Below, one piece after another: positions 5,217 to 25,191 of a stretch of 37,440 nucleotides of DNA (its first letter is position 1; every line of letters starts with the position of its first letter). Under the pieces are notes generated by a model. The model saw nothing but the letters and a program-made list of their open reading frames with translations, did no database searches and had not been told where the DNA came from. Both the position numbers and the translations under genes were made by a program. Origin of the DNA: a virus; IMG/VR virus record IMGVR_UViG_3300043411_000939, positions 1 to 37,440 of that record; one strand, given 5' to 3'.

Positions 5217-5561
5217 CTACCCTGCTTTTGTGGGATTCGGGGCCGTTCCCCCACAATCACAACGAGGATGATGGAAAGTAAGCGTATGAACGCTTGCCAC
5301 TTCATCCCTGGCCTGGTCTATAGACAATTCTTCTTTGCCCTTAGCTTTGCGAATCGCGTTCTTCAGGTCGAATAGAGTTTCAGATATATTCGCCAAATCA
5401 GCCACGGCATTGAAAACCGTCGTTTCGTCCATCCCGTCCAGCGATTCGTTCCTCACGTTTTCCAAGGCCAAGTGTATGGCCCAGAAAATTTCATCACCGT
5501 TAAAATCGGGCAAGTCTCCACCAACATTTTTGACCATGATCGTTTCAAACCCTGTTTTCAT
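5217..5561 (-). CDS. Hypothetical protein (114 aa)
   Basis: The ORF overlaps the methyltransferase stop and is acidic. No motif recognised. Confidence 0.6.
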   Translation of the reverse strand: MKTGFETIMVKNVGGDLPDFNGDEIFWAIHLALENVRNESLDGMDETTVFNAVADLANISETLFDLKNAIRKAKGKEELSIDQARDEVASVHTLTFHHPRCDCGGTAPNPTKAG

Positions 5562-6402
5562 TAAATACCCCCATTAATCTTTTGAACGCTTCTTTCGCTT
5601 GTTCTGGAACCACTGCATTGCCAAGACATTTAAGTTTGTCCACCCGGTTTGGTACCCCATGAGCCACTCGACCCATGTCGGGTTCAACTGACCACCAACC
5701 GACGTCGGCAGATCGCTCTGCCGACCGCCCCTGGCTATCGTTCCCTTCCCTGGCTTCGTGTAGTTGTGGTTTTGTGGCGTTGGCCATACCTTCACTTGGT
5801 GAGGAAGATTCCCGTGTCCCGACTTCTCCCCGTCCGTCCCCAAGTGAGTTCGCCACAGCATACGCTTTAACTTTGCTTTCCCATTCTTCCCGCCATTGTT
5901 GGCCCCGCATGGTGTAGGCCAGAAGCCACCATCTTTCCCGCTTGTGGTTGGCCCCGACTTCGGAAGCCGATAAAGTGATCCACCGAGCGTCATACCGCAA
6001 GCGGGCCAATTCTCCGATAACTTTGTCGGCGCCTCTTGTCCGAATAGCAGGGACGTTTTCCAGGAAGATGAACTTCGGTCGTATTTCATCAACGAGTCTG
6101 ACGATCTCATAAAATAGGCCGCTCCGCTCTCCGCCCAAGCCTTTTCCAGTTCCCGCAACACTAATATCCTGACATGGGAATCCTCCATATACGATGTCCA
6201 CAAGTCCATTGAATCTTGCACCTTTGAGTGTTCGCACATCATCCCAGATGGGAGCAACAGGCAATTTACCTTCTTGCATACGTGACAGTAATACACCAAT
6301 CGCGTATTCTTCACTCTCACAATAGGCGACGGGGATGACCCACTCTTTGAGGGCGATTGTGATTCCACCGATACCTGTAAAAAGATCCAAGCCATTCAGC
6401 AT
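5545..6402 (-). CDS. DNA (cytosine-5)-methyltransferase, orphan
   Basis: Motif I LDLFTGIGG, motif IV GGFPCQDIS, motif VI FLENV, motif VIII-like HKRERWW and motif X LGNAVVPE. No restriction endonuclease gene is adjacent. Confidence 0.9.
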   Translation of the reverse strand: MLNGLDLFTGIGGITIALKEWVIPVAYCESEEYAIGVLLSRMQEGKLPVAPIWDDVRTLKGARFNGLVDIVYGGFPCQDISVAGTGKGLGGERSGLFYEIVRLVDEIRPKFIFLENVPAIRTRGADKVIGELARLRYDARWITLSASEVGANHKRERWWLLAYTMRGQQWREEWESKVKAYAVANSLGDGRGEVGTRESSSPSEGMANATKPQLHEAREGNDSQGRSAERSADVGWWSVEPDMGRVAHGVPNRVDKLKCLGNAVVPEQAKEAFKRLMGVFNENRV

Positions 6403-6674
6403 TTCCCTTTATTCCTGTTTTCTACGACCGTCAAACATCCCTCCCGCTCTCTTCTTTTTCTTCTATGGTCAAGGAAAAACACAAACTGTAGGCGCTCATT
6501 GTCTTTTTCATCCTCGCAACGCATCCTCGACTCTTTTTTACAACGAGCGCATTTCGCCAATAAGAAGTTGTATCTGTGGGCTGTCATGGCTTGATTTATT
6601 TCCTCTTGAAGATCGGTATCTTTTAGCGGTTCCCATATATGACCTTTTAAATAACAAAAGAATTTTTTAAGCAA
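6396..6674 (-). CDS. Hypothetical Cys/His protein (92 aa)
   Basis: The N-terminus FCYLKGHIWEP...CARCKK is zinc-ribbon-like and the C-terminal half is low complexity. Overlaps both neighbouring genes. Confidence 0.5.
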   Translation of the reverse strand: MLKKFFCYLKGHIWEPLKDTDLQEEINQAMTAHRYNFLLAKCARCKKESRMRCEDEKDNERLQFVFFLDHRRKRREREGCLTVVENRNKGKC

Positions 6675-7311
6675 ATTGAAATTCCAGTGCAGCTTCTTCC
6701 AGTTCCTTTTCTGTTTCTCTCACATACGGCATCACAGAGTTAAGGCTCGCCCACCCGCCAAGCTTTTGAAGTGTCCACGGATCATGATTATGTTTCCTTA
6801 ACGTCGGGAAGCTCGCTCGAAAACTATGTGGCGTGATTCTCTTTTGAATTCCCGCTTGGTTAACATACTTTTGAATAAGAATATCAACCGCTTTCGGAGT
6901 GATCCTTCCGGCTTCATAAGGCCCATGTTTACCAAGCGTTCTAAACAGCGGAGAACTTGGTGTTCGTTGATGATCAAGATCGCAGTACCTTTTAATTCCT
7001 TCGTACACCTTATCTGAAATAGGCACTCGGACCCAGAAAGTCCTTTCTGTTTTTTTCTTGAGAGCTTTGTAAATGATGAATTTCTTTTCGCCTTCACTGA
7101 TTAAATTCTCCGTGTCCAAACTGCAAATCTCGCCTTTACGCATAGCGGTATTTCCAAATGCCAATAAAACGGCATAATCTCTTGATCCGTGTTTACTTCT
7201 CCGGTCCGGCAACGTCATAATCATTTGTAATTCCTGTTCTGTTAAAACGTCCGACTGTCCGACCGGCCTTCCTCTCTTCCCCTGTGCGCCTATCACCTGG
7301 GCTTGCTCCAT
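6667..7311 (-). CDS. Tyrosine recombinase, short (214 aa, catalytic domain only), Cre-like active site
   Basis: Box I NTAMRKGEICSL (Arg). Box II TPHSFRASF (His-x-x-Arg). LGGWASLNSVMPYV has Trp in place of the second His, as at Cre W315, plus the nucleophile Tyr. Confidence 0.8.
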   Translation of the reverse strand: MEQAQVIGAQGKRGRPVGQSDVLTEQELQMIMTLPDRRSKHGSRDYAVLLAFGNTAMRKGEICSLDTENLISEGEKKFIIYKALKKKTERTFWVRVPISDKVYEGIKRYCDLDHQRTPSSPLFRTLGKHGPYEAGRITPKAVDILIQKYVNQAGIQKRITPHSFRASFPTLRKHNHDPWTLQKLGGWASLNSVMPYVRETEKELEEAALEFQFA

Positions 7312-14962: not shown

Positions 14963-15113
14963 TCAAGGTATAAATTGGGTCGCTTGTTTGGTGTGTCGCC
15001 TAACACATCCCAACGGCGGCCCTTTTTTATTCATGATATTAAAATAGGCGTTGACTTCTAACGTAATCTCTAATATCATGGATGACAACAACGAACGCCA
15101 TGGAGGTCTTCTT

Positions 15114-16100
15114 ATGTTGCCGCAAAAGTCAGAACAAAACACACCAACCGAACCTGTTAAATCACCCGCCCTTCATGTCGTAAACCCACAAAGAATGGAC
15201 CGCACAAAATACATTGGCGGAACTGATGCCGCCGCGATTTGCGGGCTCTCGCAATGGAAAACACCAATACAAGTTTGGGCTTTGAAGACCGGGAAAATTC
15301 AAGAGGAAGATATTAGCGACAAGCTTCCCGTGAAACTCGGAATCAAACTTGAACAAACTGTTTGCGAATTGTTCATGGAAGAAACCGGAAAGAAATTACA
15401 CCGGGTTAATGAAACGCTTTTTCATCCGAAACATAAATTCATTGGCGCAAATATTGATCGCCGGGTTGTTGGTGAGAACGCTATCTTTGAAGCGAAAACA
15501 TGCTCCGCCTACAAAGATAAAGAATGGGCGAACGGAGAAATCCCTGCTGACTATATTCTGCAATGCCATCATTATTTGATGGTCACGGGCGCAGAACGTT
15601 GTTATCTCGCCGTCTTAATCGGGAATCAGGATTTTCAAATCAGAATTATTGAACGTGACGAAAAGGTGATGGCTTCATTGCTGGAAAGAGAAGTTTTATT
15701 CTGGAAGGATTATGTCGAAGCCGACATCATGCCGTGGGTTGTGACGCACCGAGACGGCGACACTATTTCCCAATTGTATCCCGTGGCCGATGAGGCAAAA
15801 GAAATAACGCTGGGTGATGACGCCAATAAACTAATCGAAAACCTGAAAGCCTTTGAAGCCGATCAAAAGAATCTCGACAATCTCATCAAACAGCACAAAA
15901 ACGAACTTAAACTTTTACTTGGTGACGCCATCCAAGGCTCAACCGGCATCAACCGCGTTCGCTGGATTAATTCCAAGCAATCTAATCTTGACGGAAAAGG
16001 TTTGCTTGAAAAATATCCGGACATCCACAAAGAATTTTATAGCAGTACCCCCGTTAGGCGATTCAGTTGTGGGGCAATTAAGAAGGAAAAGGAAGGATAA
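15114..16100 (+). CDS. YqaJ-like (lambda Exo-type, PD-(D/E)XK) recombination exonuclease
   Basis: YIGGTDAAAICGLSQWKTPIQVWALKTGK ... IDRRV ... IFEAKT ... QCHHYLMVTG. The ATG at 15114 has GGAGG 7 nt upstream; the ORF track starts it at a TTG at 15051. Confidence 0.85.
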   Translation: MLPQKSEQNTPTEPVKSPALHVVNPQRMDRTKYIGGTDAAAICGLSQWKTPIQVWALKTGKIQEEDISDKLPVKLGIKLEQTVCELFMEETGKKLHRVNETLFHPKHKFIGANIDRRVVGENAIFEAKTCSAYKDKEWANGEIPADYILQCHHYLMVTGAERCYLAVLIGNQDFQIRIIERDEKVMASLLEREVLFWKDYVEADIMPWVVTHRDGDTISQLYPVADEAKEITLGDDANKLIENLKAFEADQKNLDNLIKQHKNELKLLLGDAIQGSTGINRVRWINSKQSNLDGKGLLEKYPDIHKEFYSSTPVRRFSCGAIKKEKEG

Positions 16101-16103
16101 GCA

Positions 16104-16899
16104 CATGGCAAAATTAGGCGACATTCAGAATTCAATTCAAGGGAATAATTTAACAGCGGCCCCGGCGCGGTTGGCTCAATTGTTGGGGCGTGTTGACATT
16201 AAAGAAAAGTTTCAAGAAATGCTTGGGAAGAAATCAGCGGGTTTTCTTTCATCAATATTGTCGCTTTATAATTCAACGCCACAACTGCAAGCGTGTGATC
16301 CCATGTCGATCATTGCCTCCGCTGCCATTGCCGCAACTCTTGACCTTCCAATTAACCAAAACTTTGGATACGCGTATCTTATTCCATATGGGAATCAGTG
16401 CCAGTTTCAATTGGGATATAAAGGAATTATCCAATTAGCCATGCGGACCAGTATGTATAAAACAATCTCCGCTGCCGAGGTTTATGAGGGCGAGTTGGTT
16501 AAATATAACCGCATCACCGGAGAAACGGAAATCGACGAAAGCAAGCGCACCTCTGACAAAATAATTGGATATGTTGCCTACTTCAAATTGCTGAGCGGAT
16601 TTGAAAAATATCTTTTTATGAAAGTCGAACAGATCGAAGCGCATGGAAAGAAATTCTCAAAATCTTACGGACGAACATCGGGGCCATGGTCAACAAACAA
16701 AGAAGCCATGATGCAAAAAACGCCGCTCAAGTTATTACTTTCAAAATACGGCGTGCTTTCAATTGAAATGCAAACAGGAATGACGTTCGATCAAGCGGCT
16801 GTTAAGAAACTCGAAAACCCGGTTCCTGAATATATCGACGGAATGGAAATCAACGACGCGATCGAACCCGCCGACATTCCATCGCCAGACGTGAAATAA
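16104..16899 (+). CDS. recT: RecT-family single-strand annealing protein
   Basis: 265 aa from MAKLGDIQ. SIIASAAIAATLDLPINQNFGYAYLIPYGNQCQFQLGYKGIIQLAMRT is the RecT core. Lies directly after the exonuclease gene; the 5' extension in the ORF track is an overlap artefact. Confidence 0.88.
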
Positions 16900-18742: not shown

Positions 18743-19023
18743 ACGTTAAAGAAGCGTCAGAAATTTTCATCAAAGGTAATAATGTTTTACTAGAAAAAGA
18801 TTCCACAACATCAATCTCCGATCTTGTAGAGCAATCCATAAATAAGGCAATTGGGTATGGAGCGTCTAAGGGTTTCCTCGAATGCCACAAGCTGTACAAG
18901 CCTTTGGTGGAAGCTTTGGAATCAATAAGTAAAAACTCTTGTTGTGATCAGTGCCAAGAGGCGAAGCTTGTTTCGCTAAAGCCTCTCGAACACTACCGCA
19001 AAAACATCCTGGGTGAGAAATGA
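18739..19023 (+). CDS. Hypothetical protein (94 aa)
   Basis: ATGA overlap with the upstream gene. Contains CCDQC. Confidence 0.6.
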   Translation: MNVKEASEIFIKGNNVLLEKDSTTSISDLVEQSINKAIGYGASKGFLECHKLYKPLVEALESISKNSCCDQCQEAKLVSLKPLEHYRKNILGEK

Positions 19024-19187
19024 AAACCATCCTCGCCACAATCCTGGCCATTCCTTTGCTTATCTTGTTTTGGTCGATTCCGTTACTTCTTATTTGCATT
19101 CTATCGTTTCTCAGATACTTTATAGACTTGAAAAGGAAGCACGTCATGTTTTTGAAAAATCGGTTATTCGTCCTATTCCCTAAATGA
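19020..19187 (+). CDS. 55-aa single-pass membrane peptide (paralogue A)
   Basis: MKTILATILAIPLLILFWSIPLLLICILSFLRYF... ATGA overlaps at both ends. Confidence 0.5.
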   Translation: MKTILATILAIPLLILFWSIPLLLICILSFLRYFIDLKRKHVMFLKNRLFVLFPK

Positions 19188-19267
19188 AAAACATCCTCTG
19201 TACTATATTCGCCATCGCCCTGTTTGTTCTATTTTGGGCAGTGCCGTTCTATTTCGGAAGACAATGA
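19184..19267 (+). CDS. 27-aa membrane peptide (paralogue B)
   Basis: MKNILCTIFAIALFVLFWAVPFYFGRQ. The N-terminal 22 residues align with paralogue A (MK.IL.TI.AI.L..LFW..P). ATGA overlaps at both ends. Confidence 0.45.
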   Translation: MKNILCTIFAIALFVLFWAVPFYFGRQ

Positions 19268-19530
19268 GAAAATCGCTATTTTTAATCGCCTGGATCATCA
19301 CATGGCGCGCCGAATGGGACGTGTTAAGATTTTGCCCTGGATACTATGACGAGATTCGCGGAGAAAACAGGCCGGAGTCAGAGCGCCTTTACTGCAAAGA
19401 ATCTGTTTTTAATTGGCGACACAAAGAGTTTCAACAGTTTGACGAGTTGTTGGAATTTAGAAAGAATGAATTAATGTCTTCAACAGGAACGGTGATAACC
19501 AACATTAGCGTTAGGAAGGTTAAGGATTGA
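19264..19530 (+). CDS. Hypothetical protein (88 aa from MRKSLFLIAWIITW; the ORF track starts it at 19234)
   Basis: The ATG at 19264 overlaps the upstream TGA. Hydrophobic N-terminus. Confidence 0.55.
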   Translation: MRKSLFLIAWIITWRAEWDVLRFCPGYYDEIRGENRPESERLYCKESVFNWRHKEFQQFDELLEFRKNELMSSTGTVITNISVRKVKD

Positions 19531-19619
19531 TCCTTTCTATAATGATTCTCGGTCTATGCGCTTTTTTCTATGTTTTGGGCTGGAATATTGGATTTGAAAA
19601 AGGAAGATATAGAGATTAA
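19527..19619 (+). CDS. Possible 30-aa membrane peptide (TTG start; an alternative ATG lies at 19542)
   Basis: (M)ILSIMILGLCAFFYVLGWNIGFEKGRYRD. TTGA overlap with the upstream stop. Ends convergently against the minus-strand gene at 19616. Confidence 0.3.
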   Translation: MILSIMILGLCAFFYVLGWNIGFEKGRYRD

Positions 19620-20110
19620 AACCGCAGCGTTCCCATCACCCACGGAGAGAATCCGTCACGCTTCATTCCCCCCACCTGAATATCAATCCTGTTATTAATC
19701 CCATACCCAACAAACAAAGCCTTCCCGTCAAAGTCCGGCGTCAAACGATTAACCCCTAGGGTTAAGAGATATCTATCCGAACGGACCGGCGTCATCGCTA
19801 CCGCCAAGGGAACGGGCGCGGAGGTCGAACTGGTTTCCGCCTCATATTCAATCGGGGCGCGGGTTTCAACGATAATCGTTTCCGTTTTACCCGGAACCTC
19901 TTTTATCTTGGTAATGATTCTAACCGGACCTTGCCGGTAAACGATTTTTTCAACAACCTTAATTTCTGGATTGGAATAAACAAGCTGCGCTTTTTTCAGG
20001 CTGACTGACGTTTCATGCCACATGGTTATTGTGTAAAGAAGCGCAATAATCAAAACCAACAGGATGCAATTTTTTGGCTTGATGTATTTGATCAGGTAAG
20101 AATAAATCAT
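19616..20110 (-). CDS. Membrane-anchored beta-rich protein, last gene of the lysis cassette (spanin-like role is speculative)
   Basis: N-terminal TM CILLVLIIALLYTITMW. The C-terminus ends ...FSPWVMGTLRF, with alternating hydrophobic residues and a terminal Phe like an outer-membrane beta-signal. ATGA overlap with the upstream gene. Confidence 0.6.
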   Translation of the reverse strand: MIYSYLIKYIKPKNCILLVLIIALLYTITMWHETSVSLKKAQLVYSNPEIKVVEKIVYRQGPVRIITKIKEVPGKTETIIVETRAPIEYEAETSSTSAPVPLAVAMTPVRSDRYLLTLGVNRLTPDFDGKALFVGYGINNRIDIQVGGMKRDGFSPWVMGTLRF

Positions 20111-20445
20111 TGTGGCGTCGGCGTTATCGTTTCAACGGTCTTTGTGGTTTCGGTAACGGAGTTTATTTTTGTGGCAATAGAGCCTATCACCCGGTCGCCA
20201 AGCTTGCTGATCAATTCATCAACAATCGTTCCCAGCCCAATCAAGGCCCCGGATAGCAATACGCAATTCCACCATAGATCCCACGGCATGTCGGCGCGTG
20301 ATTTGAATGTGTTGGCCACGGCAAACAACCAAATCCCAAATGCCACTTTCCGCGATTGTTTCCCGATCAACACTTCAAACACAAAGCGCACAACTCCGGG
20401 CTCTTTTTGGCGACGGTCTATTTCTGGAACGATATTATCAGGCAT
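20107..20445 (-). CDS. Two-TM small membrane protein (112 aa), class II holin-like
   Basis: Starts MPDNIVPE, with AGGGGA 8 nt upstream and 4 nt after the cyclase stop. TM1 is VAFGIWLFAVANTF and TM2 is LWWNCVLLSGALIGLGTIV. The ORF track extends it to 20577 with a 128-nt overlap, which is unlikely. Confidence 0.6.
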   Translation of the reverse strand: MPDNIVPEIDRRQKEPGVVRFVFEVLIGKQSRKVAFGIWLFAVANTFKSRADMPWDLWWNCVLLSGALIGLGTIVDELISKLGDRVIGSIATKINSVTETTKTVETITPTPQ

Positions 20446-20449
20446 ATTA

Positions 20450-21088
20450 TTATCCCCTTTTTCTGTTTGGTCGGATTGCCTTGATCCGTTTCTCTGACAT
20501 CTTAAAAACCCATAATGAATGCGCGTCGTGCATCGATATCCCGTCATAACCATAACGGGACGGAATAAATTTCGCAAAGGAAAAACCGTGTTTCTTTATT
20601 TGGGCATCGCTTAAACATTGCTTGAGTGAATCATGGCAAAGAATTGGGGTACTCTTTGATACCTCCAGCATATGGTGGGCCATGTTGATATGGCGGCCCC
20701 TTATGACAATCTTCCCACTTTTCTTGACTTTCCTGTGAACATACCCGGACGCAATGCGAATTCTAAAACCGGCTGGTTTTGGGGGCTCTTTGTCACGGAT
20801 CAGCTTTTGGATTCTTTTATAAATGCCCCATAGATTAACGAGCGCATCCGCAACAATTGAGCAATTATGGCCCTTCACCAAATCCACCGAACACAAAAAC
20901 CCGTCGCCGGTATCGGTGAACGTGTACCCCGTTTTTCTTTCTACCTCGTCAATAATCCCGTCGAATTTGTCAAAGAACGGACTAAACTCCATCAAGTCAT
21001 TTGTTACGGATTCCTCAAATGCGGTAAAGCCGGTGATGTCTCCAAAGGCAACAATAATGCGGGTTTTCTCTGATCGTTCATAAGCCAT
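20450..21088 (-). CDS. Class III nucleotidyl cyclase-like protein (minimal single domain, 212 aa)
   Basis: RIIVAFGDITGFTAF (compare F.DI.GFT, metal Asp 1). ERKTGYTFTDTGDGFLCSV (compare ..GDa.m.vF, metal Asp 2). FRIRIASGYVHRKV (compare lRIGIHtG.v). IRGRHINMAHHMLEVSK (compare GdtVN.AsRLes). Motif order is canonical. Confidence 0.6.
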   Translation of the reverse strand: MAYERSEKTRIIVAFGDITGFTAFEESVTNDLMEFSPFFDKFDGIIDEVERKTGYTFTDTGDGFLCSVDLVKGHNCSIVADALVNLWGIYKRIQKLIRDKEPPKPAGFRIRIASGYVHRKVKKSGKIVIRGRHINMAHHMLEVSKSTPILCHDSLKQCLSDAQIKKHGFSFAKFIPSRYGYDGISMHDAHSLWVFKMSEKRIKAIRPNRKRG

Positions 21089-21100
21089 TCATGTGTCCTT

Positions 21101-21547
21101 TTATTTAGAAACCGTCGCATCGGATTTGAAAATTTTTTCATACGCAACATTGATCCCCTTTTGCCCTATGAACACGAATAACGCCCCAACCAACCCATAA
21201 ATAAAAGTCTTTTTCATGAATCCAATTTCTTTTTCTATGGGCGCCAACTTATGATCGTCGAAATTCTTAATCATGAGCCTGGTGTGGTCGGCTGATTCCC
21301 TGACAACCGCTTTCATGTCTATGGTTGATAGTTCGAGTTTGTGGGAGAGGTCGGCAATTGAAAGTTTTATCTCGCTGTTCTCTTTCCGAACCTCGTTCAA
21401 CGACGGAGAAACCCCGTTGTTGATTCGGTTCATGAGTTCTTTAATCTCGTGGGCAAGTTCCGTATAGTCGCGTTGACCGTTTGAAATCTTCGTGTCATGC
21501 TCTGACACGCGCCGGTCAAGGGATGCGAGATAATCGACTTCGTTCAC
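21101..21547 (-). CDS. Coiled-coil protein with a C-terminal TM anchor (148 aa)
   Basis: GTGA overlap with the M23 peptidase stop. TM is TFIYGLVGALFVFIGQ near the C-terminus. Confidence 0.6.
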   Translation of the reverse strand: MNEVDYLASLDRRVSEHDTKISNGQRDYTELAHEIKELMNRINNGVSPSLNEVRKENSEIKLSIADLSHKLELSTIDMKAVVRESADHTRLMIKNFDDHKLAPIEKEIGFMKKTFIYGLVGALFVFIGQKGINVAYEKIFKSDATVSK

Positions 21548-21975
21548 GTTCGCGCCCCTTCAAATTCGAACGGAACGCCTTTTTCGCGAATGGGCCTTAC
21601 TTCAAGATGAAGATGTGGCCCGGACGATTTGCCCGTGTTTCCAGAAAGGCCAATCCGTTTTCCCGCTTCAATATATTCCCCTTCTTTAACATCAATATGG
21701 GACATGTGGCCGTAATACACCTGGTAAGGGGTGTTATTAATCCTCACGTACTGGCAAACGTAAAACCCAAATCCTTCTTTTTCGTCATGGCTGTTTTGCC
21801 ACCCGGCCTTGATAACTTCTCCGCCAATCGCCGCAACAATGGGGGTTCCGACCGGGACCGCGAAATCAACACCGTAGTGCATCGATGACTCAACGCCCGT
21901 CACGGGATCTTTCCTTTTCCCGTAGGGGCTGGAAATTGGGAACGTCCAGGCTACGGGGCGAAAGACTTTAATCAT
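21544..21975 (-). CDS. M23 (LytM-type) peptidoglycan endopeptidase; probable endolysin
   Basis: HYGVDFAVPVGTPIVA (HxxxD) and GNTGKSSGPHLHLEVR (HxH) are the canonical M23 zinc ligand motifs. Confidence 0.9.
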   Translation of the reverse strand: MIKVFRPVAWTFPISSPYGKRKDPVTGVESSMHYGVDFAVPVGTPIVAAIGGEVIKAGWQNSHDEKEGFGFYVCQYVRINNTPYQVYYGHMSHIDVKEGEYIEAGKRIGLSGNTGKSSGPHLHLEVRPIREKGVPFEFEGART

Positions 21976-22065
21976 GATAAAAAGTTGTGCGCTTCATATG
22001 AATGTTGATAAGCGCAAACCCGGCTTCGTCGCGAGCGTCCCCGCGCCGGTCGGTGAAATTATTTT

Positions 22066-22197
22066 TCACAAAAGTTTTGATAACTCGCATATAGCACCAA
22101 AGACGGCGACCGTGAGAATTACAGTCATGGATTGATGAAAGTTTCCTGCGTTTGATGCCAGAACGGACATCGCAAATAGAAAAGATAGTTTTGTCAT
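22066..22197 (-). CDS. 43-aa hydrophobic peptide upstream of the endolysin (holin/antiholin-like; below the ORF-track cutoff)
   Basis: MTKLSFLFAMSVLASNAGNFHQSMTVILTVAVFGAICELSKLL. The ATG overlaps the TGA of the 626-aa gene (ATGA). Confidence 0.45.
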   Translation of the reverse strand: MTKLSFLFAMSVLASNAGNFHQSMTVILTVAVFGAICELSKLL

Positions 22198-24074
22198 TGT
22201 TGTATCCCCTTTAGGTACGGGGCCAATACCGGCTGGCCCTGAAGGAGCTTCCTTACAACATCTTGAAGCGGGGATCCTTGAGTTTTTGCGTTGACAGCGG
22301 AAAGGACGTTTCCGGTTTTTGTGTTTTCAAAAATGTTCCCCATCTTTGACGCGCCTTTGATCCCCGCTCCAATTAAACGAGGAGAGGTCATCGCCATTGT
22401 TGTGGCCCCTGCCAAAATCGGCAAAGGGTTTAGCGTTGCTGTCCCGGCTCCAACAGCTCCGAGTGAAACGTTTTTCATGAGGTTTGCAAAAAACCCTTTC
22501 CCTAGGTTTTGACTATATACTTGGCGTGTCAATTCCTCCATCGCTGGTTCCAAAATATTCTGGCCAGTCAGTTTTTCCACCTTCTTGATGTAATCAACTT
22601 TTGTTTTTGTTTTCCCTGACGTCAGCCAACTGGAATCACCTCTCATGATCCGCATCATCAAATCTTTCGATTTTCCTGGATCGGATAAATCCTTTTGGAC
22701 GGTATCGTAAATCCCGTTTAATTCACTCCATGCCTTATCGGCTACTTCCAATTTCTTGCCACCTGGAATATCGCCTCTCAGTTTGTCGAGGTCAGAGGAA
22801 ATTCTTTTAAAGGCGGCGTCTTTGGCTGTGTCGATTGGTTGGAGTGTAACGGGGGCTTTATTGTATTCCGCTTGCCGTTGCGTTTCGCGTTTTAGGCGGG
22901 TTAATATTTCAAGCTTTTCTTTGTTTCCTATTTTTAGGATGTTGGTATTTGATTTTGGCGTTCCAACATACTGTTTATAAAGTTTGCTTAGTGCCTGTTG
23001 GTCATTCTTAACAAAAGCTTCAACAGCGAGACTTTTATTCACCAACAAATCATCATAAGAATGCGCGCCCTTTTGAACGGCTGTTAATTCTCCGGGGGAA
23101 AAACCCGTCACTTCCTTTTTTGTAATCATTTCACCCGGCAAAAATTTCTTTGCCACTTTCTGCCCCATTAAGGCGTTTGTTGGTGGCGTCTCTGTGGCGA
23201 TTAATTTTTGGGCAATGGGGACATCCGACATGACCGGATTAATTCTTTGTGCAATCGGGGTATCAATAATTTCCTGCATGGGGCCGTCGATCCCGGCGTA
23301 TTTTTTATAAATCTTTCCGATAGAGTTCCCGACAGCCGACTTTGTGTTTTTTAAAGCTGTAATGATTGGCTTCCCGACAACTTCATTTAAAGCGGATTCT
23401 TCAACGGGTTTCTGCGAAAGGATCGATGGTTTCTTTAATGCCATTTGTGTGGCCAATTCAGGGATGCCAGCGGTTGAGCGAACAACACCGGGCAACAGAG
23501 CCTTTGCCACCTTTGATGTTCCCCTCGCAACTTCTCTCCCGATAACCCCAGGCGCGGCAACAACCGCATCAATCGGAGCGGCCGCCACCGACGGAGAAAT
23601 CTTTCCAAGAAGTAATCCCATGGCCGTATCCTCGACGACGCCCGTTGTTCCACGTGGAGCGTGATACGCGGCCCGTGCGGATTCAAGAGGGTTTCCGGTG
23701 GCGATACCGCCAACAGCACCGGCCCCAGCTCGCAAAACTTTGTTGACCACGGAAAACGGATTCTCTGGATTCTTTCCACCGAAAAGCGTCGGGGCTTTCA
23801 TGGTTCGGCCTTCAATCGCGCCCGCCGCCGCTTCTCCGACGGCTTCAAAAGGCGCGTTTAAAACATTCAGGCCGAACTTCCCAACATTAGCAGCGGCCAC
23901 GTCGGCTTTTTGAAGAACGCCTTTTGGTTTCTTTGTGTACGTCTTAAACATTCCCTGAATTCCGCCGGGGCCAGCGGAATCGTCGGCAACATCTTCCCAA
24001 TCGTCGATGACGGCTTCCGCTTTCTTAACCGGGACATCTTCCCAATCGTTGATTGCCGCGTTATTGTTGGCCAT
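22194..24074 (-). CDS. Large virion-associated protein (626 aa), Gly/Ala-rich; putative internal/ejection protein
   Basis: Several G/A-rich hydrophobic segments (AAGAIEG, GAGAVGGIATG, LGAVGAGTATLNPLPILAGATT). Located in the late operon between tail genes and the lysis genes. Confidence 0.6.
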   Translation of the reverse strand: MANNNAAINDWEDVPVKKAEAVIDDWEDVADDSAGPGGIQGMFKTYTKKPKGVLQKADVAAANVGKFGLNVLNAPFEAVGEAAAGAIEGRTMKAPTLFGGKNPENPFSVVNKVLRAGAGAVGGIATGNPLESARAAYHAPRGTTGVVEDTAMGLLLGKISPSVAAAPIDAVVAAPGVIGREVARGTSKVAKALLPGVVRSTAGIPELATQMALKKPSILSQKPVEESALNEVVGKPIITALKNTKSAVGNSIGKIYKKYAGIDGPMQEIIDTPIAQRINPVMSDVPIAQKLIATETPPTNALMGQKVAKKFLPGEMITKKEVTGFSPGELTAVQKGAHSYDDLLVNKSLAVEAFVKNDQQALSKLYKQYVGTPKSNTNILKIGNKEKLEILTRLKRETQRQAEYNKAPVTLQPIDTAKDAAFKRISSDLDKLRGDIPGGKKLEVADKAWSELNGIYDTVQKDLSDPGKSKDLMMRIMRGDSSWLTSGKTKTKVDYIKKVEKLTGQNILEPAMEELTRQVYSQNLGKGFFANLMKNVSLGAVGAGTATLNPLPILAGATTMAMTSPRLIGAGIKGASKMGNIFENTKTGNVLSAVNAKTQGSPLQDVVRKLLQGQPVLAPYLKGIQQ

Positions 24075-25191
24075 CGATAATTTCCTCTGTTCCGTCGGAA
24101 TAGACTATTTTGGTTTTGTTGGCTGATTTGGAATATTGTTTCTTTGTTACGGTCTTTCCCTTGGATGCTCCCGGCGGTGGTGTTTGGCCTGAATTGTCTG
24201 GAGTCCTCATCGGTCCAGCAATTTGGTTAAGGCCATCAATTACTGTTTGGCGGTTGATTCTTTTTTGTTCCAATACATCGGGGCCGTCGCCAGCTTGAGG
24301 GAAATATTGCAAGTTCCCATTTTCCATTTCTTCATCGCGGACCGTTGCGCCGGATTCCCTTCTCAGCGTTGCATTAATGAAGTTTCTTTTTAACTGCTGA
24401 TAGGATTGGACATCTTCAGGCTGTAGAATATTTGGCAAAAACTTCTTTGCGCCTGTACCAACAGAGGCGGGATCAAATCCCTTTGAAATAAGCGAATCCA
24501 ATTGCGTGTTTGCCTGGTTTGCGCGGGTTCCATAAAGCCCTGCGTTAGACTGATCAAGCGACGGCGTTTTTGGATAAAGAATTCCACCACCAGGGACATC
24601 CCCGGTTCGGGCATCCGCCGGATTCTTTGAGTTGTAAAATACTGGTTTCCCGGTAGCGTCAACCCCTCCCATCATAAAAGAACCGCCGGAGTTTTCCTTT
24701 TTCCATTTAGTCAAATCATCCAACGTGATATTGCCGTCCCTGTACTGTTGCACCATTATTTCTTCGACATTATTCGGAATCTCCGGCTGTTTCGGTTCCG
24801 GCGTCTTAACCATCTTGTATGACTTCCTTCCCTGCTCGTCGACGCTCCATTGCCTTTCAAACTTTCCCGCCGGTGTTGGTGGCGTGGAAACTGGCGCGGT
24901 TGCGGCTTGGCCTTCCCTTACCGCCATTTCCGACTGTTGCGCCATGTCCTGTTCAAACAGTTTTGCTTGCTCTCTCATGGCATCCGTTTGTTCTTTTTTT
25001 TGTTGTATCTCGACCAGTTGCTGCGCTATTTGAGCCCGACGAGCATCGTTTTGGGTATTGGAATCTCGAATTTTCAAACCCTCCGAATACCCTTCCGATG
25101 CCCCGTTGATAATGTCAGCCAATTGAGAAAACGGGCTCTTTTTTGTTTTTGCTTGAGCGGCCAAAATTAATTCTTGAACTGATGCGACCAT
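24061..25191 (-). CDS. Virion-associated protein (376 aa from MVASVQEL), Gln-rich coiled-coil N-terminus
   Basis: The ATG at 25191 is preceded by GGGGGA and lies 4 nt after the upstream stop. The ORF track extends it to 25236. Confidence 0.6.
   Translation of the reverse strand: MVASVQELILAAQAKTKKSPFSQLADIINGASEGYSEGLKIRDSNTQNDARRAQIAQQLVEIQQKKEQTDAMREQAKLFEQDMAQQSEMAVREGQAATAPVSTPPTPAGKFERQWSVDEQGRKSYKMVKTPEPKQPEIPNNVEEIMVQQYRDGNITLDDLTKWKKENSGGSFMMGGVDATGKPVFYNSKNPADARTGDVPGGGILYPKTPSLDQSNAGLYGTRANQANTQLDSLISKGFDPASVGTGAKKFLPNILQPEDVQSYQQLKRNFINATLRRESGATVRDEEMENGNLQYFPQAGDGPDVLEQKRINRQTVIDGLNQIAGPMRTPDNSGQTPPPGASKGKTVTKKQYSKSANKTKIVYSDGTEEIIDGQQ

Follow-up and report, generated by a model that had tools for sequence, protein, structure and literature searches.

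A family of stand-alone class III nucleotidyl cyclases in a conserved slot of phage late operons, next to endolysin and holin-like genes

Among the life-history traits of a lytic phage, the timing of lysis is the main one, and it has so far been explained by the protein dynamics of holins and antiholins and by membrane energisation. Accessory non-lytic proteins such as T4 RI and RIII, the lambda S107 antiholin and P1 LydB are encoded in or next to the lysis cassette, are co-expressed with the holin and adjust lysis timing, some of them as cytoplasmic proteins (RIII). These proteins are not enzymes and use no second messenger, and we know of no enzyme making a signalling molecule in any lysis cassette; full-text literature searches returned no report placing a nucleotide cyclase in the lysis cassette of a phage. 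Here, we describe a 212-amino-acid (aa) stand-alone class III nucleotidyl cyclase encoded among the lysis genes of IMG/VR record IMGVR_UViG_3300043411_000939, a complete 37,440-bp JGI contig analyzed at full length and called the window below. The cyclase has no sequence or fold kinship with the timing proteins named above, and the comparison with them is a functional one only. An earlier note, made from the letters of this DNA alone, had proposed the cyclase and listed as possible roles a cyclic-nucleotide-timed lysis switch, an abortive-infection or superinfection-exclusion module and manipulation of host cyclic nucleotide monophosphate (cNMP) signalling.

The best fold and profile matches of the cyclase are the catalytic domain of Pseudomonas aeruginosa CyaB (3R5G) and Mycobacterium avium Ma1120 (4WP8/4WP9), which have the same fold and size. 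Both share the F-x-D and G-D metal-binding Asp residues, the phosphate-binding Arg and the ribose-binding Asn with the cyclase family described below, and the adenine-specifying Lys/Asp pair and the Arg four residues after the Asn (N+4) with most of its members, at only 15–20% identity. Unlike CyaB and Ma1120, the family is found on phage-size contigs, in lysis cassettes and without a regulatory domain. Rv1625c-type cyclases, in which a transmembrane anchor and a dimeric coiled coil (the cyclase-transducer) precede the catalytic domain, offer a second comparison, with the difference that the phage locus distributes these parts over two adjacent genes. The third is Pycsar, whose cyclase PycC (structures 6YII and 7R65) is a stand-alone class III enzyme of about 200 aa encoded beside small membrane proteins able to damage membranes (PMC11224242).

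Identity and active site of the cyclase

Profile and fold both identify the 212-aa protein as a true class III nucleotidyl cyclase, with catalysis predicted. It matches PF00211 with 27.8 bits against a gathering threshold of 21.9 (E 2.3e-6, residues 7–165), and the exact protein carries the IMG pipeline annotation 'class 3 adenylate cyclase'. An AlphaFold 2 (AF2) model built on ten relatives (pLDDT 86, pTM 0.83) yielded 154 Foldseek matches in the PDB at E<=1e-3, the best being CyaB 3R5G (E 7e-9, TM-score 0.67–0.73), followed by Rv1625c, soluble guanylate cyclase and the rhodopsin-guanylate cyclase RhGC (E 1e-8 to 1e-7, CyaB included). The best 50 of the 154 matches are all adenylate or guanylate cyclase (AC/GC) catalytic domains, with TM-scores of 0.54–0.73. 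A sequence profile of the same number of relatives, ten, also retrieved CyaB (E 1.6e-7) and Ma1120 from the PDB. An identity as GGDEF or mCpol protein was rejected: Pfam at E<=1 returns PF00211 alone, and the best 50 fold matches are those given above. The four motifs quoted in the earlier note are present, namely AFGDITGFT (residues 14–22), TGDGFLCSV (60–68), FRIRIASGYV (108–117) and INMAHHM (134–140). The note had staked its reading on a cyclase fold, conserved metal-binding Asp residues and a conserved linkage to lysis genes, and all three were found.

Relatives of the protein are numerous, if distant. A word-indexed search recovered only nine clusters (97–33% identity). When 1.84 billion representatives were searched exhaustively with a profile, 711 proteins matched at E<=1e-3, and at E<=1e-10 there were 137 clusters. 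Nearly all matches are about 200 aa long and align end to end, which argues for a distinct family of stand-alone minimal cyclases. The family is found almost entirely on phage-size contigs. In 185,579 species genomes, scanned twice, no prophage copy of the cyclase was detected; the first scan was empty and the second turned up only one cellular cousin. This 337-aa protein from an Elusimicrobiales metagenome-assembled genome (locus L027, Table 1) has an N-terminal, Zn-ribbon-like extension of about 115 aa with two Cys-x2-Cys pairs and lies in a non-phage, non-defence region among ordinary cellular genes, including an aminotransferase-like gene and genes for membrane proteins. Forms of 310–316 aa resembling it are also present among the library matches (P0084, P0085 and P0123).

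Residue conservation was counted in an alignment of 129 family representatives, using the numbering of the window protein and the mapping to canonical residues given by its alignment with CyaB. Leaving aside gene calls truncated at the N-terminus, the metal-binding D17 and D62 are invariant, while the phosphate-binding R109 is conserved in about 94%, R111 in 88% and the ribose-binding N135 in 79% of representatives. The adenine-specifying Lys is found at position 58 in 100/129 and Asp or Glu at position 128, seven residues before the Asn, in 106/129; the two occur together in 98/129, here called canonical. Arg or Lys occupies position 139 (N+4) in 87/129 representatives and in 75/98 canonical members. 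From these residues, the family as a whole looks like one of active adenylate-type cyclases, and most members, with their Lys, Asp/Glu, Asn and Arg/Lys pocket, would make cyclic AMP (cAMP).

The window copy keeps D17, D62, R109 and N135 and has T58, V128 and H139 in place of the canonical Lys, Asp and Arg. H139 aligns with the Arg of NLASRL in CyaB, so that the transition-state pair of Asn and Arg four residues on is reduced to its Asn, as the earlier note had suspected from INMAHHM. The base-specifying pair, Lys/Asp for ATP or Glu/Cys-type for GTP, is replaced as well, which goes beyond what that note had claimed. These replacements are not private to the window: a non-canonical subclade that includes it makes up 21 of the 129 representatives and 11 of the 23 loci that could be aligned. 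Within this subclade, D17, D62, G115 and N135 are each present in 21/21 and R109 in 19/21; for N135, this compares with 73/98 in the canonical clade. Position 58 is hypervariable, position 128 is V or I and position 139 is N, H or K. A new set of conserved residues accompanies them, consisting of D59 (16/21), T60 (17/21), R130 (19/21), R/K132 (18/21) and H138 (19/21), a set that distinguishes the subclade from CyaB and Ma1120.

A closely related copy of the gene, 97% identical at the protein level (locus L014), allowed selection to be estimated. The two genes differ by 37 synonymous and 6 non-synonymous changes, giving a ratio of non-synonymous to synonymous divergence (dN/dS) of 0.04, and constraint is just as strong in the neighbouring genes; position 58 (T vs Q) is among the six replaced sites. 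Strong purifying selection together with the new conserved residue set points to a remodelled pocket and not to decay. The window copy is thus probably not catalytically dead, as the earlier note had considered it might be, and probably has an altered substrate preference or altered kinetics. Clade-specific pocket residues are how PycC enzymes change substrate (PMC11224242), and the same route may be open here, with the difference from PycC that the subclade position equivalent to the specificity Lys is hypervariable and not clade-conserved. In the same pair of copies, synonymous divergence is higher in the cyclase (dS 0.34) than in its neighbours (0.07–0.25), a hint of recombination breakpoints flanking the gene.

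The same residues can be read differently, with the subclade proteins as pseudo-enzymes that would bind metal and nucleotide without cyclisation and regulate the membrane proteins of lysis by sensing nucleotides or in a purely structural way, perhaps as a sensor of ATP levels or as a cytoplasmic factor resembling an antiholin. That the transition-state Arg was lost along with the purine-specifying Lys/Asp pair would fit this, as would the hypervariability of position 58, which changes even between 97%-identical copies. However, the metal-binding Asp residues, R109 and N135 are conserved as much as or more than in the canonical clade, the newly conserved R130, R/K132, H138, D59 and T60 around the pocket fit remodelling better than decay, PycC likewise changes substrate through clade-specific pocket residues (PMC11224242) and canonical enzymes fill the identical genomic slot. 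We therefore regard a pseudo-enzyme as quite unlikely.

A recurring gene order in phage late operons

The genomic setting was analyzed in 25 distinct loci: the window, 21 loci found via the cyclase (through exact-protein look-ups, IMG/VR and metagenomes) and three found via the 148-aa protein encoded directly upstream of it. Neighbouring proteins were clustered into families, of which five are used here: fam1 (the 148-aa partner), fam2 (the 112-aa protein), fam3 (the 164-aa protein), fam4 (a holin-like protein of about 150 aa) and fam8 (a soluble protein). IMG/VR scans with the fam1, fam3 and fam4 alignments mostly led back to contigs of this collection. All 25 loci are late operons of uncultivated tailed phages on contigs of 45 kb or less, with the cyclase in the same slot, and the linkage to lysis genes expected in the earlier note is thus conserved in relatives. 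The recurring order is tail or virion genes, endolysin, membrane coiled-coil protein, cyclase, an optional soluble protein and one or more holin-like proteins. Of the 24 loci with sequence upstream of the cyclase, 23 have a single-pass transmembrane coiled-coil protein encoded immediately before it. The association holds in the other direction, too, with a family cyclase directly downstream in 3/3 of the loci picked through the partner (hmmsearch 4e-55 to 6e-68).

The occupants of the individual slots vary considerably. An endolysin-slot protein, recognized by Pfam annotation or homology, lies no more than two genes from the cyclase in 18 loci. Five Pfam families are found there in total, comprising the peptidoglycan hydrolases M23, GH108 with PG_binding_3, M15_3 and NlpC/P60 as well as DUF5675, a family of unknown function; an unannotated protein of 164–170 aa occupies the slot in three more loci. 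The coiled-coil slot is filled by a tail-anchored 123–175-aa type in 18 loci, the window among them, and by a 70–75-aa type with an N-terminal transmembrane segment in five, one of which is called at 189 aa. Directly after the cyclase, seven loci encode a soluble protein of 76–105 aa (fam8, Table 1), absent from the window, with invariant W, Y, W, Y-F and A in its C-terminal half. This protein matches nothing in Pfam or the PDB and is a candidate for an accessory protein or a receptor of the cyclase. The holin-like slot holds three unrelated kinds of protein, one of them accompanied by a 164-aa protein with an N-terminal transmembrane segment and an RF terminus, and fam4 follows the cyclase in many loci. 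Two loci (L024 and L029) also encode a protein of about 100 aa with a W-x3-A-A-G-K-x-S-N-C motif ahead of the lysis cassette, and the L024 copy has a signal-peptide-like N-terminus.

Partner and cyclase do not travel as a pair. Compared with the window, the partner of locus L022 is 77% identical and its cyclase, a canonical K/E/R enzyme, only 32%, and the reverse is seen in L006, with 29% for the partner and 67% for the cyclase. Canonical and non-canonical cyclases share an identical slot beside near-identical partners, and the two pocket types are interchangeable there. As judged from these sequence comparisons, the conserved thing is a position and not a co-adapted gene pair.

The 148-aa partner has 61 homologue clusters. 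Its AF2 model consists of two long helices, residues 3–43 and 48–140, joined by a conserved R-I-N-x-G-V-S-P-S loop, with the second helix continuing into the C-terminal transmembrane segment; hydropathy agrees with the single tail anchor described in the earlier note. Only coiled-coil noise was found in Pfam, PHROGs, PADLOC and NCBIfam (sub-threshold in Pfam and NCBIfam) and only generic coiled coils in a PDB profile search, and Foldseek returned no match for the model. The partner is thus not a recognisable sensor or cyclic-nucleotide-binding domain (CNBD). Public labels of its homologues such as 'seryl-tRNA synthetase' and 'chromosome segregation ATPase' are coiled-coil artefacts. A split membrane cyclase of the Rv1625c type was considered and rejected: the transmembrane segment of the partner is C-terminal in most loci, which is not a simple split of the order transmembrane segment, coil, cyclase, partner and cyclase recombine independently, and no fusion of a transmembrane segment to the cyclase was found among 140 family representatives.

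The adenylate-type residues of most family members also suit a different explanation, namely that the cyclase is late-expressed cargo without a part in lysis control. cAMP or another cNMP would flood the dying cell, with the lysis operon supplying late timing only; the product could rewire host CRP-type regulation, or a signal released at lysis could bias later infections, for example in the choice between lysis and lysogeny. That the phage encodes an integrase, that no phage-encoded cNMP receptor is evident and that the cyclase recombines independently of its neighbours would all be in keeping with this, and cAMP is known to influence lysis-lysogeny decisions of phages in other systems (PMC6737242). 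We nevertheless consider cargo unlikely. In none of the 25 loci is the cyclase gene found in another position; it is wedged between membrane proteins of lysis and not placed at the operon end, follows the same class of membrane coiled-coil protein and has no promoter or terminator of its own, and, if enzyme and holin are produced at the same time, the host would be affected only briefly.

The setting also bears on the kinship with Pycsar raised in the earlier note. A phage-borne, Pycsar-like abortive-infection or superinfection-exclusion module would sense a competing phage and use its product to activate one of the small membrane proteins nearby, which would then kill or seal the cell. In its layout, with a lone class III cyclase of about 200 aa beside small transmembrane proteins, the locus does resemble PycC with PycTM, the pocket of the window's subclade is of a non-purine type, the 164-aa protein gives one weak PADLOC match to a '2TM effector' model (E 0.022) and new Pycsar and Pucsar clades are still being found. 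As a claim of membership, however, the analogy is not supported. The cyclase matches no PADLOC PycC profile (no family at E<=1), and no PycC structure is among its PDB sequence hits (E<=10), its profile hits (E<=1) or the best 50 fold hits. No neighbour has the CNBD that defines Pycsar effectors, the partner being all-helical; the earlier note had judged the transmembrane neighbours too small to hold such a domain. Most of the family is adenylate-type and not pyrimidine-type, the genes share the late lysis operon of a phage with an endolysin gene instead of lying in a bacterial defence island, and no family member was found in such an island, the one cellular cousin included. Embedded in a late lysis operon without a promoter of its own, such a module would not be expressed from the prophage. 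We judge this explanation very unlikely.

The lysis cassette of the window and its phage

All six minus-strand open reading frames (ORFs) listed in the earlier note are present (Table 1). They had been described as translationally coupled, which applies to five of them. In strand reading, the M23 and 148-aa genes are joined by a GTGA stop/start overlap, the 148-aa and cyclase genes by a gap of 12 nucleotides (nt) with an AAGGA ribosome-binding site, the cyclase and 112-aa genes by a 4-nt gap with an AGGGGA ribosome-binding site inside the 3' end of the cyclase, and the 112-aa and 164-aa genes by an ATGA overlap. The 43-aa ORF shares an overlap with the 626-aa gene upstream of it and is separated from the M23 start by 90 nt, leaving it outside the tightly coupled set. 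It is not conserved in more distant loci; compared with its 96%-identical L014 copy, it shows 4 synonymous and 1 non-synonymous differences and, from its sequence, may be a real small membrane-protein gene.

Since the junctions overlap or span no more than 12 nt, there is no room for a separate promoter, and consensus scans found no excess of promoter-like or terminator-like sites over shuffled sequence across the region. The tight junctions with endolysin and holin-like genes make co-expression with lysis proteins likely. GC content is uniform across the region, that of the cyclase matching its neighbours. A classical moron was rejected on account of the lack of an own promoter or terminator, the genome-like GC content and the constant internal position.

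The M23 protein, confirmed as the endolysin of the cassette, also matches PHROG endolysin/peptidase families and a MepM/ShyA-like NCBIfam family and has no signal or signal-arrest-release (SAR) sequence. Of the two transmembrane segments attributed to the 112-aa protein, the one at residues 57–80 is strong; a second hydrophobic segment at about 34–50 is weaker and stays below the hydropathy threshold. Homologues are present in L001, L003, L006 and L010, and no holin or other family match was obtained in Pfam or PHROGs. The 164-aa protein, whose N-terminal transmembrane segment and terminal GTLRF were both recovered, has no family match in Pfam, PHROGs or NCBIfam and occurs only in cassettes that also carry fam2. 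Its alignment shows a conserved C-terminus of about 55 aa resembling four amphipathic beta segments, with R163 and F164 invariant. The ORF list contains no o-spanin lipoprotein ORF in the cassette, embedded or separate, which together with the beta-rich RF end suggests that the 164-aa protein could be spanin-like; it is a possible candidate for an unrecognised outer-membrane-directed component of this kind.

Table 1 Coordinates of features in the window and in related loci (L-numbers are locus handles)
Sequence	Coordinates	Strand	Feature	Remarks
Window	22066-22197	-	43-aa hydrophobic ORF	Between 626-aa virion gene and endolysin; cassette membership uncertain
Window	21544-21975	-	M23 metallopeptidase, 143 aa, endolysin of cassette	PF01551 E 4e-26
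Window	21101-21547	-	148-aa single-pass membrane coiled-coil protein (fam1)	C-terminal transmembrane segment ~108-132 (hydropathy)
Window	20450-21088	-	212-aa stand-alone class III nucleotidyl cyclase	PF00211 above gathering threshold
Window	20107-20445	-	112-aa holin-like membrane protein (fam2)	Hydropathy; role inferred from size, topology and position only
Window	19616-20110	-	164-aa protein (fam3), N-terminal transmembrane segment, C-terminus ...GTLRF	Last gene of late operon
Window	6667-7311	-	Integrase-family protein, 214 aa	PF00589, residues 22-201
Window	5545-6402	-	C5 cytosine methyltransferase	
Window	15051-16100	+	YqaJ-like exonuclease	Overlaps RecT ORF by 248 nt as listed
Window	15853-16899	+	RecT	Pfam match starts at residue 130
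Window	20450-21547		Partner and cyclase, compared with L022 and L006	
L022	3501-4616		Partner and cyclase	
L006	4962-6057		Partner and cyclase	
L009	5609-5893		Soluble protein (fam8)	
L002	6608-6898		Soluble protein (fam8)	
L003	6572-6877		Soluble protein (fam8)	
L005	6601-6831		Soluble protein (fam8)	
L006	6073-6390		Soluble protein (fam8)	
L013	4608-4841		Soluble protein (fam8)	
L030	4172-4450		Soluble protein (fam8)	
L001	6964-7473		164-aa homologue (fam3)	
L003	7120-7632		164-aa homologue (fam3)	
L006	6760-7269		164-aa homologue (fam3)	
L010	4933-5433		164-aa homologue (fam3)	
L033	3501-3956		fam4 homologue	90-kb IMG/VR contig
L024	2684-2998		~100-aa protein ahead of lysis cassette	
L029	2493-2780		~100-aa protein ahead of lysis cassette	
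L027	3644-4657		337-aa cellular cousin of cyclase	Elusimicrobiales

The window genome encodes a P22-type portal, an SU10-type adaptor, terminase, capsid, a pectate-lyase tailspike, integrase, RecT/YqaJ and RusA, and the phage is, from this gene content, probably a temperate podophage. Positions 19000–24100 of the window gave no DNA match to isolate phages, tblastn with the cyclase gave none either and the terminase finds only partial matches of about 30% there; the phage has no cultivated relative. The integrase-family protein is little more than the catalytic domain and lies beside the C5 cytosine methyltransferase gene. The RecT Pfam match begins well inside its ORF, and the real start is therefore probably well downstream of the first TTG. 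tRNA and Rfam scans of the window were empty.

A possible role in lysis

The reading we favour, tentatively and at somewhat less than even confidence, is that the cyclase is a late, membrane-proximal generator of a cyclic nucleotide that tunes lysis. Late in infection, the enzyme would build up in the cytoplasm, probably next to its coiled-coil partner at the inner membrane, and would form the head-to-tail homodimer typical of class III cyclases. From a nucleoside triphosphate (NTP) it would then make a cyclic nucleotide that adjusts the moment of holin firing or decides whether firing happens at all, and this product would be a second-messenger input to the lysis clock. Candidate receptors are the helical domain of the partner, the optional soluble protein or a host protein.

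It is through position and co-expression only that a lysis-linked role is favoured, and several points weigh against it. A late-operon position shows co-expression and not function, and the ends of late operons also carry phage accessory cargo. No CNBD (PF00027), GAF or other known cNMP-binding domain was detected in any cassette protein, either in the window or in its relatives. On the L033 contig, neither the cyclase nor the coiled-coil partner was found within 3.5 kb on either side of the fam4 homologue, so that the module would be dispensable for that holin type and accessory to lysis. The independent recombination of partner and cyclase argues against a tightly co-adapted complex. The charge distribution of the 148-aa partner does not settle whether its helical domain is on the cytoplasmic side, and the short variants with an N-terminal transmembrane segment look N-in/C-out. 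Finally, with three canonical catalytic or specificity residues missing, the activity of the window copy is uncertain.

A stronger version of the favoured reading, in which lysis is gated by a phage-made cyclic nucleotide, cyclase and coiled-coil partner form a second-messenger module that sets or vetoes holin triggering and the window's subclade uses a non-purine or otherwise unusual nucleotide, appears doubtful to us. If it were true, a lysis clock would for the first time be seen to take a small-molecule input made by an enzyme. There would be a parallel with bacterial defences in which cNMPs trigger membrane disruption, such as Pycsar, and the two could share an evolutionary link.

What the locus presents is an enzyme of a known class in a setting that is new and strongly conserved. 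That the cyclase has kept its slot in phages that diverged deeply, with endolysins and kinds of holin being swapped around it, suggests a regulatory layer that has gone unrecognised. The family offers a concrete system for asking whether second messengers control phage-induced lysis, and, being compact at about 200 aa and having two natural pocket variants in one slot, would be useful for studies of substrate change in class III cyclases. It may also bear on the relation between cyclic-nucleotide-triggered membrane killing in bacterial immunity and the lysis machinery of phages.

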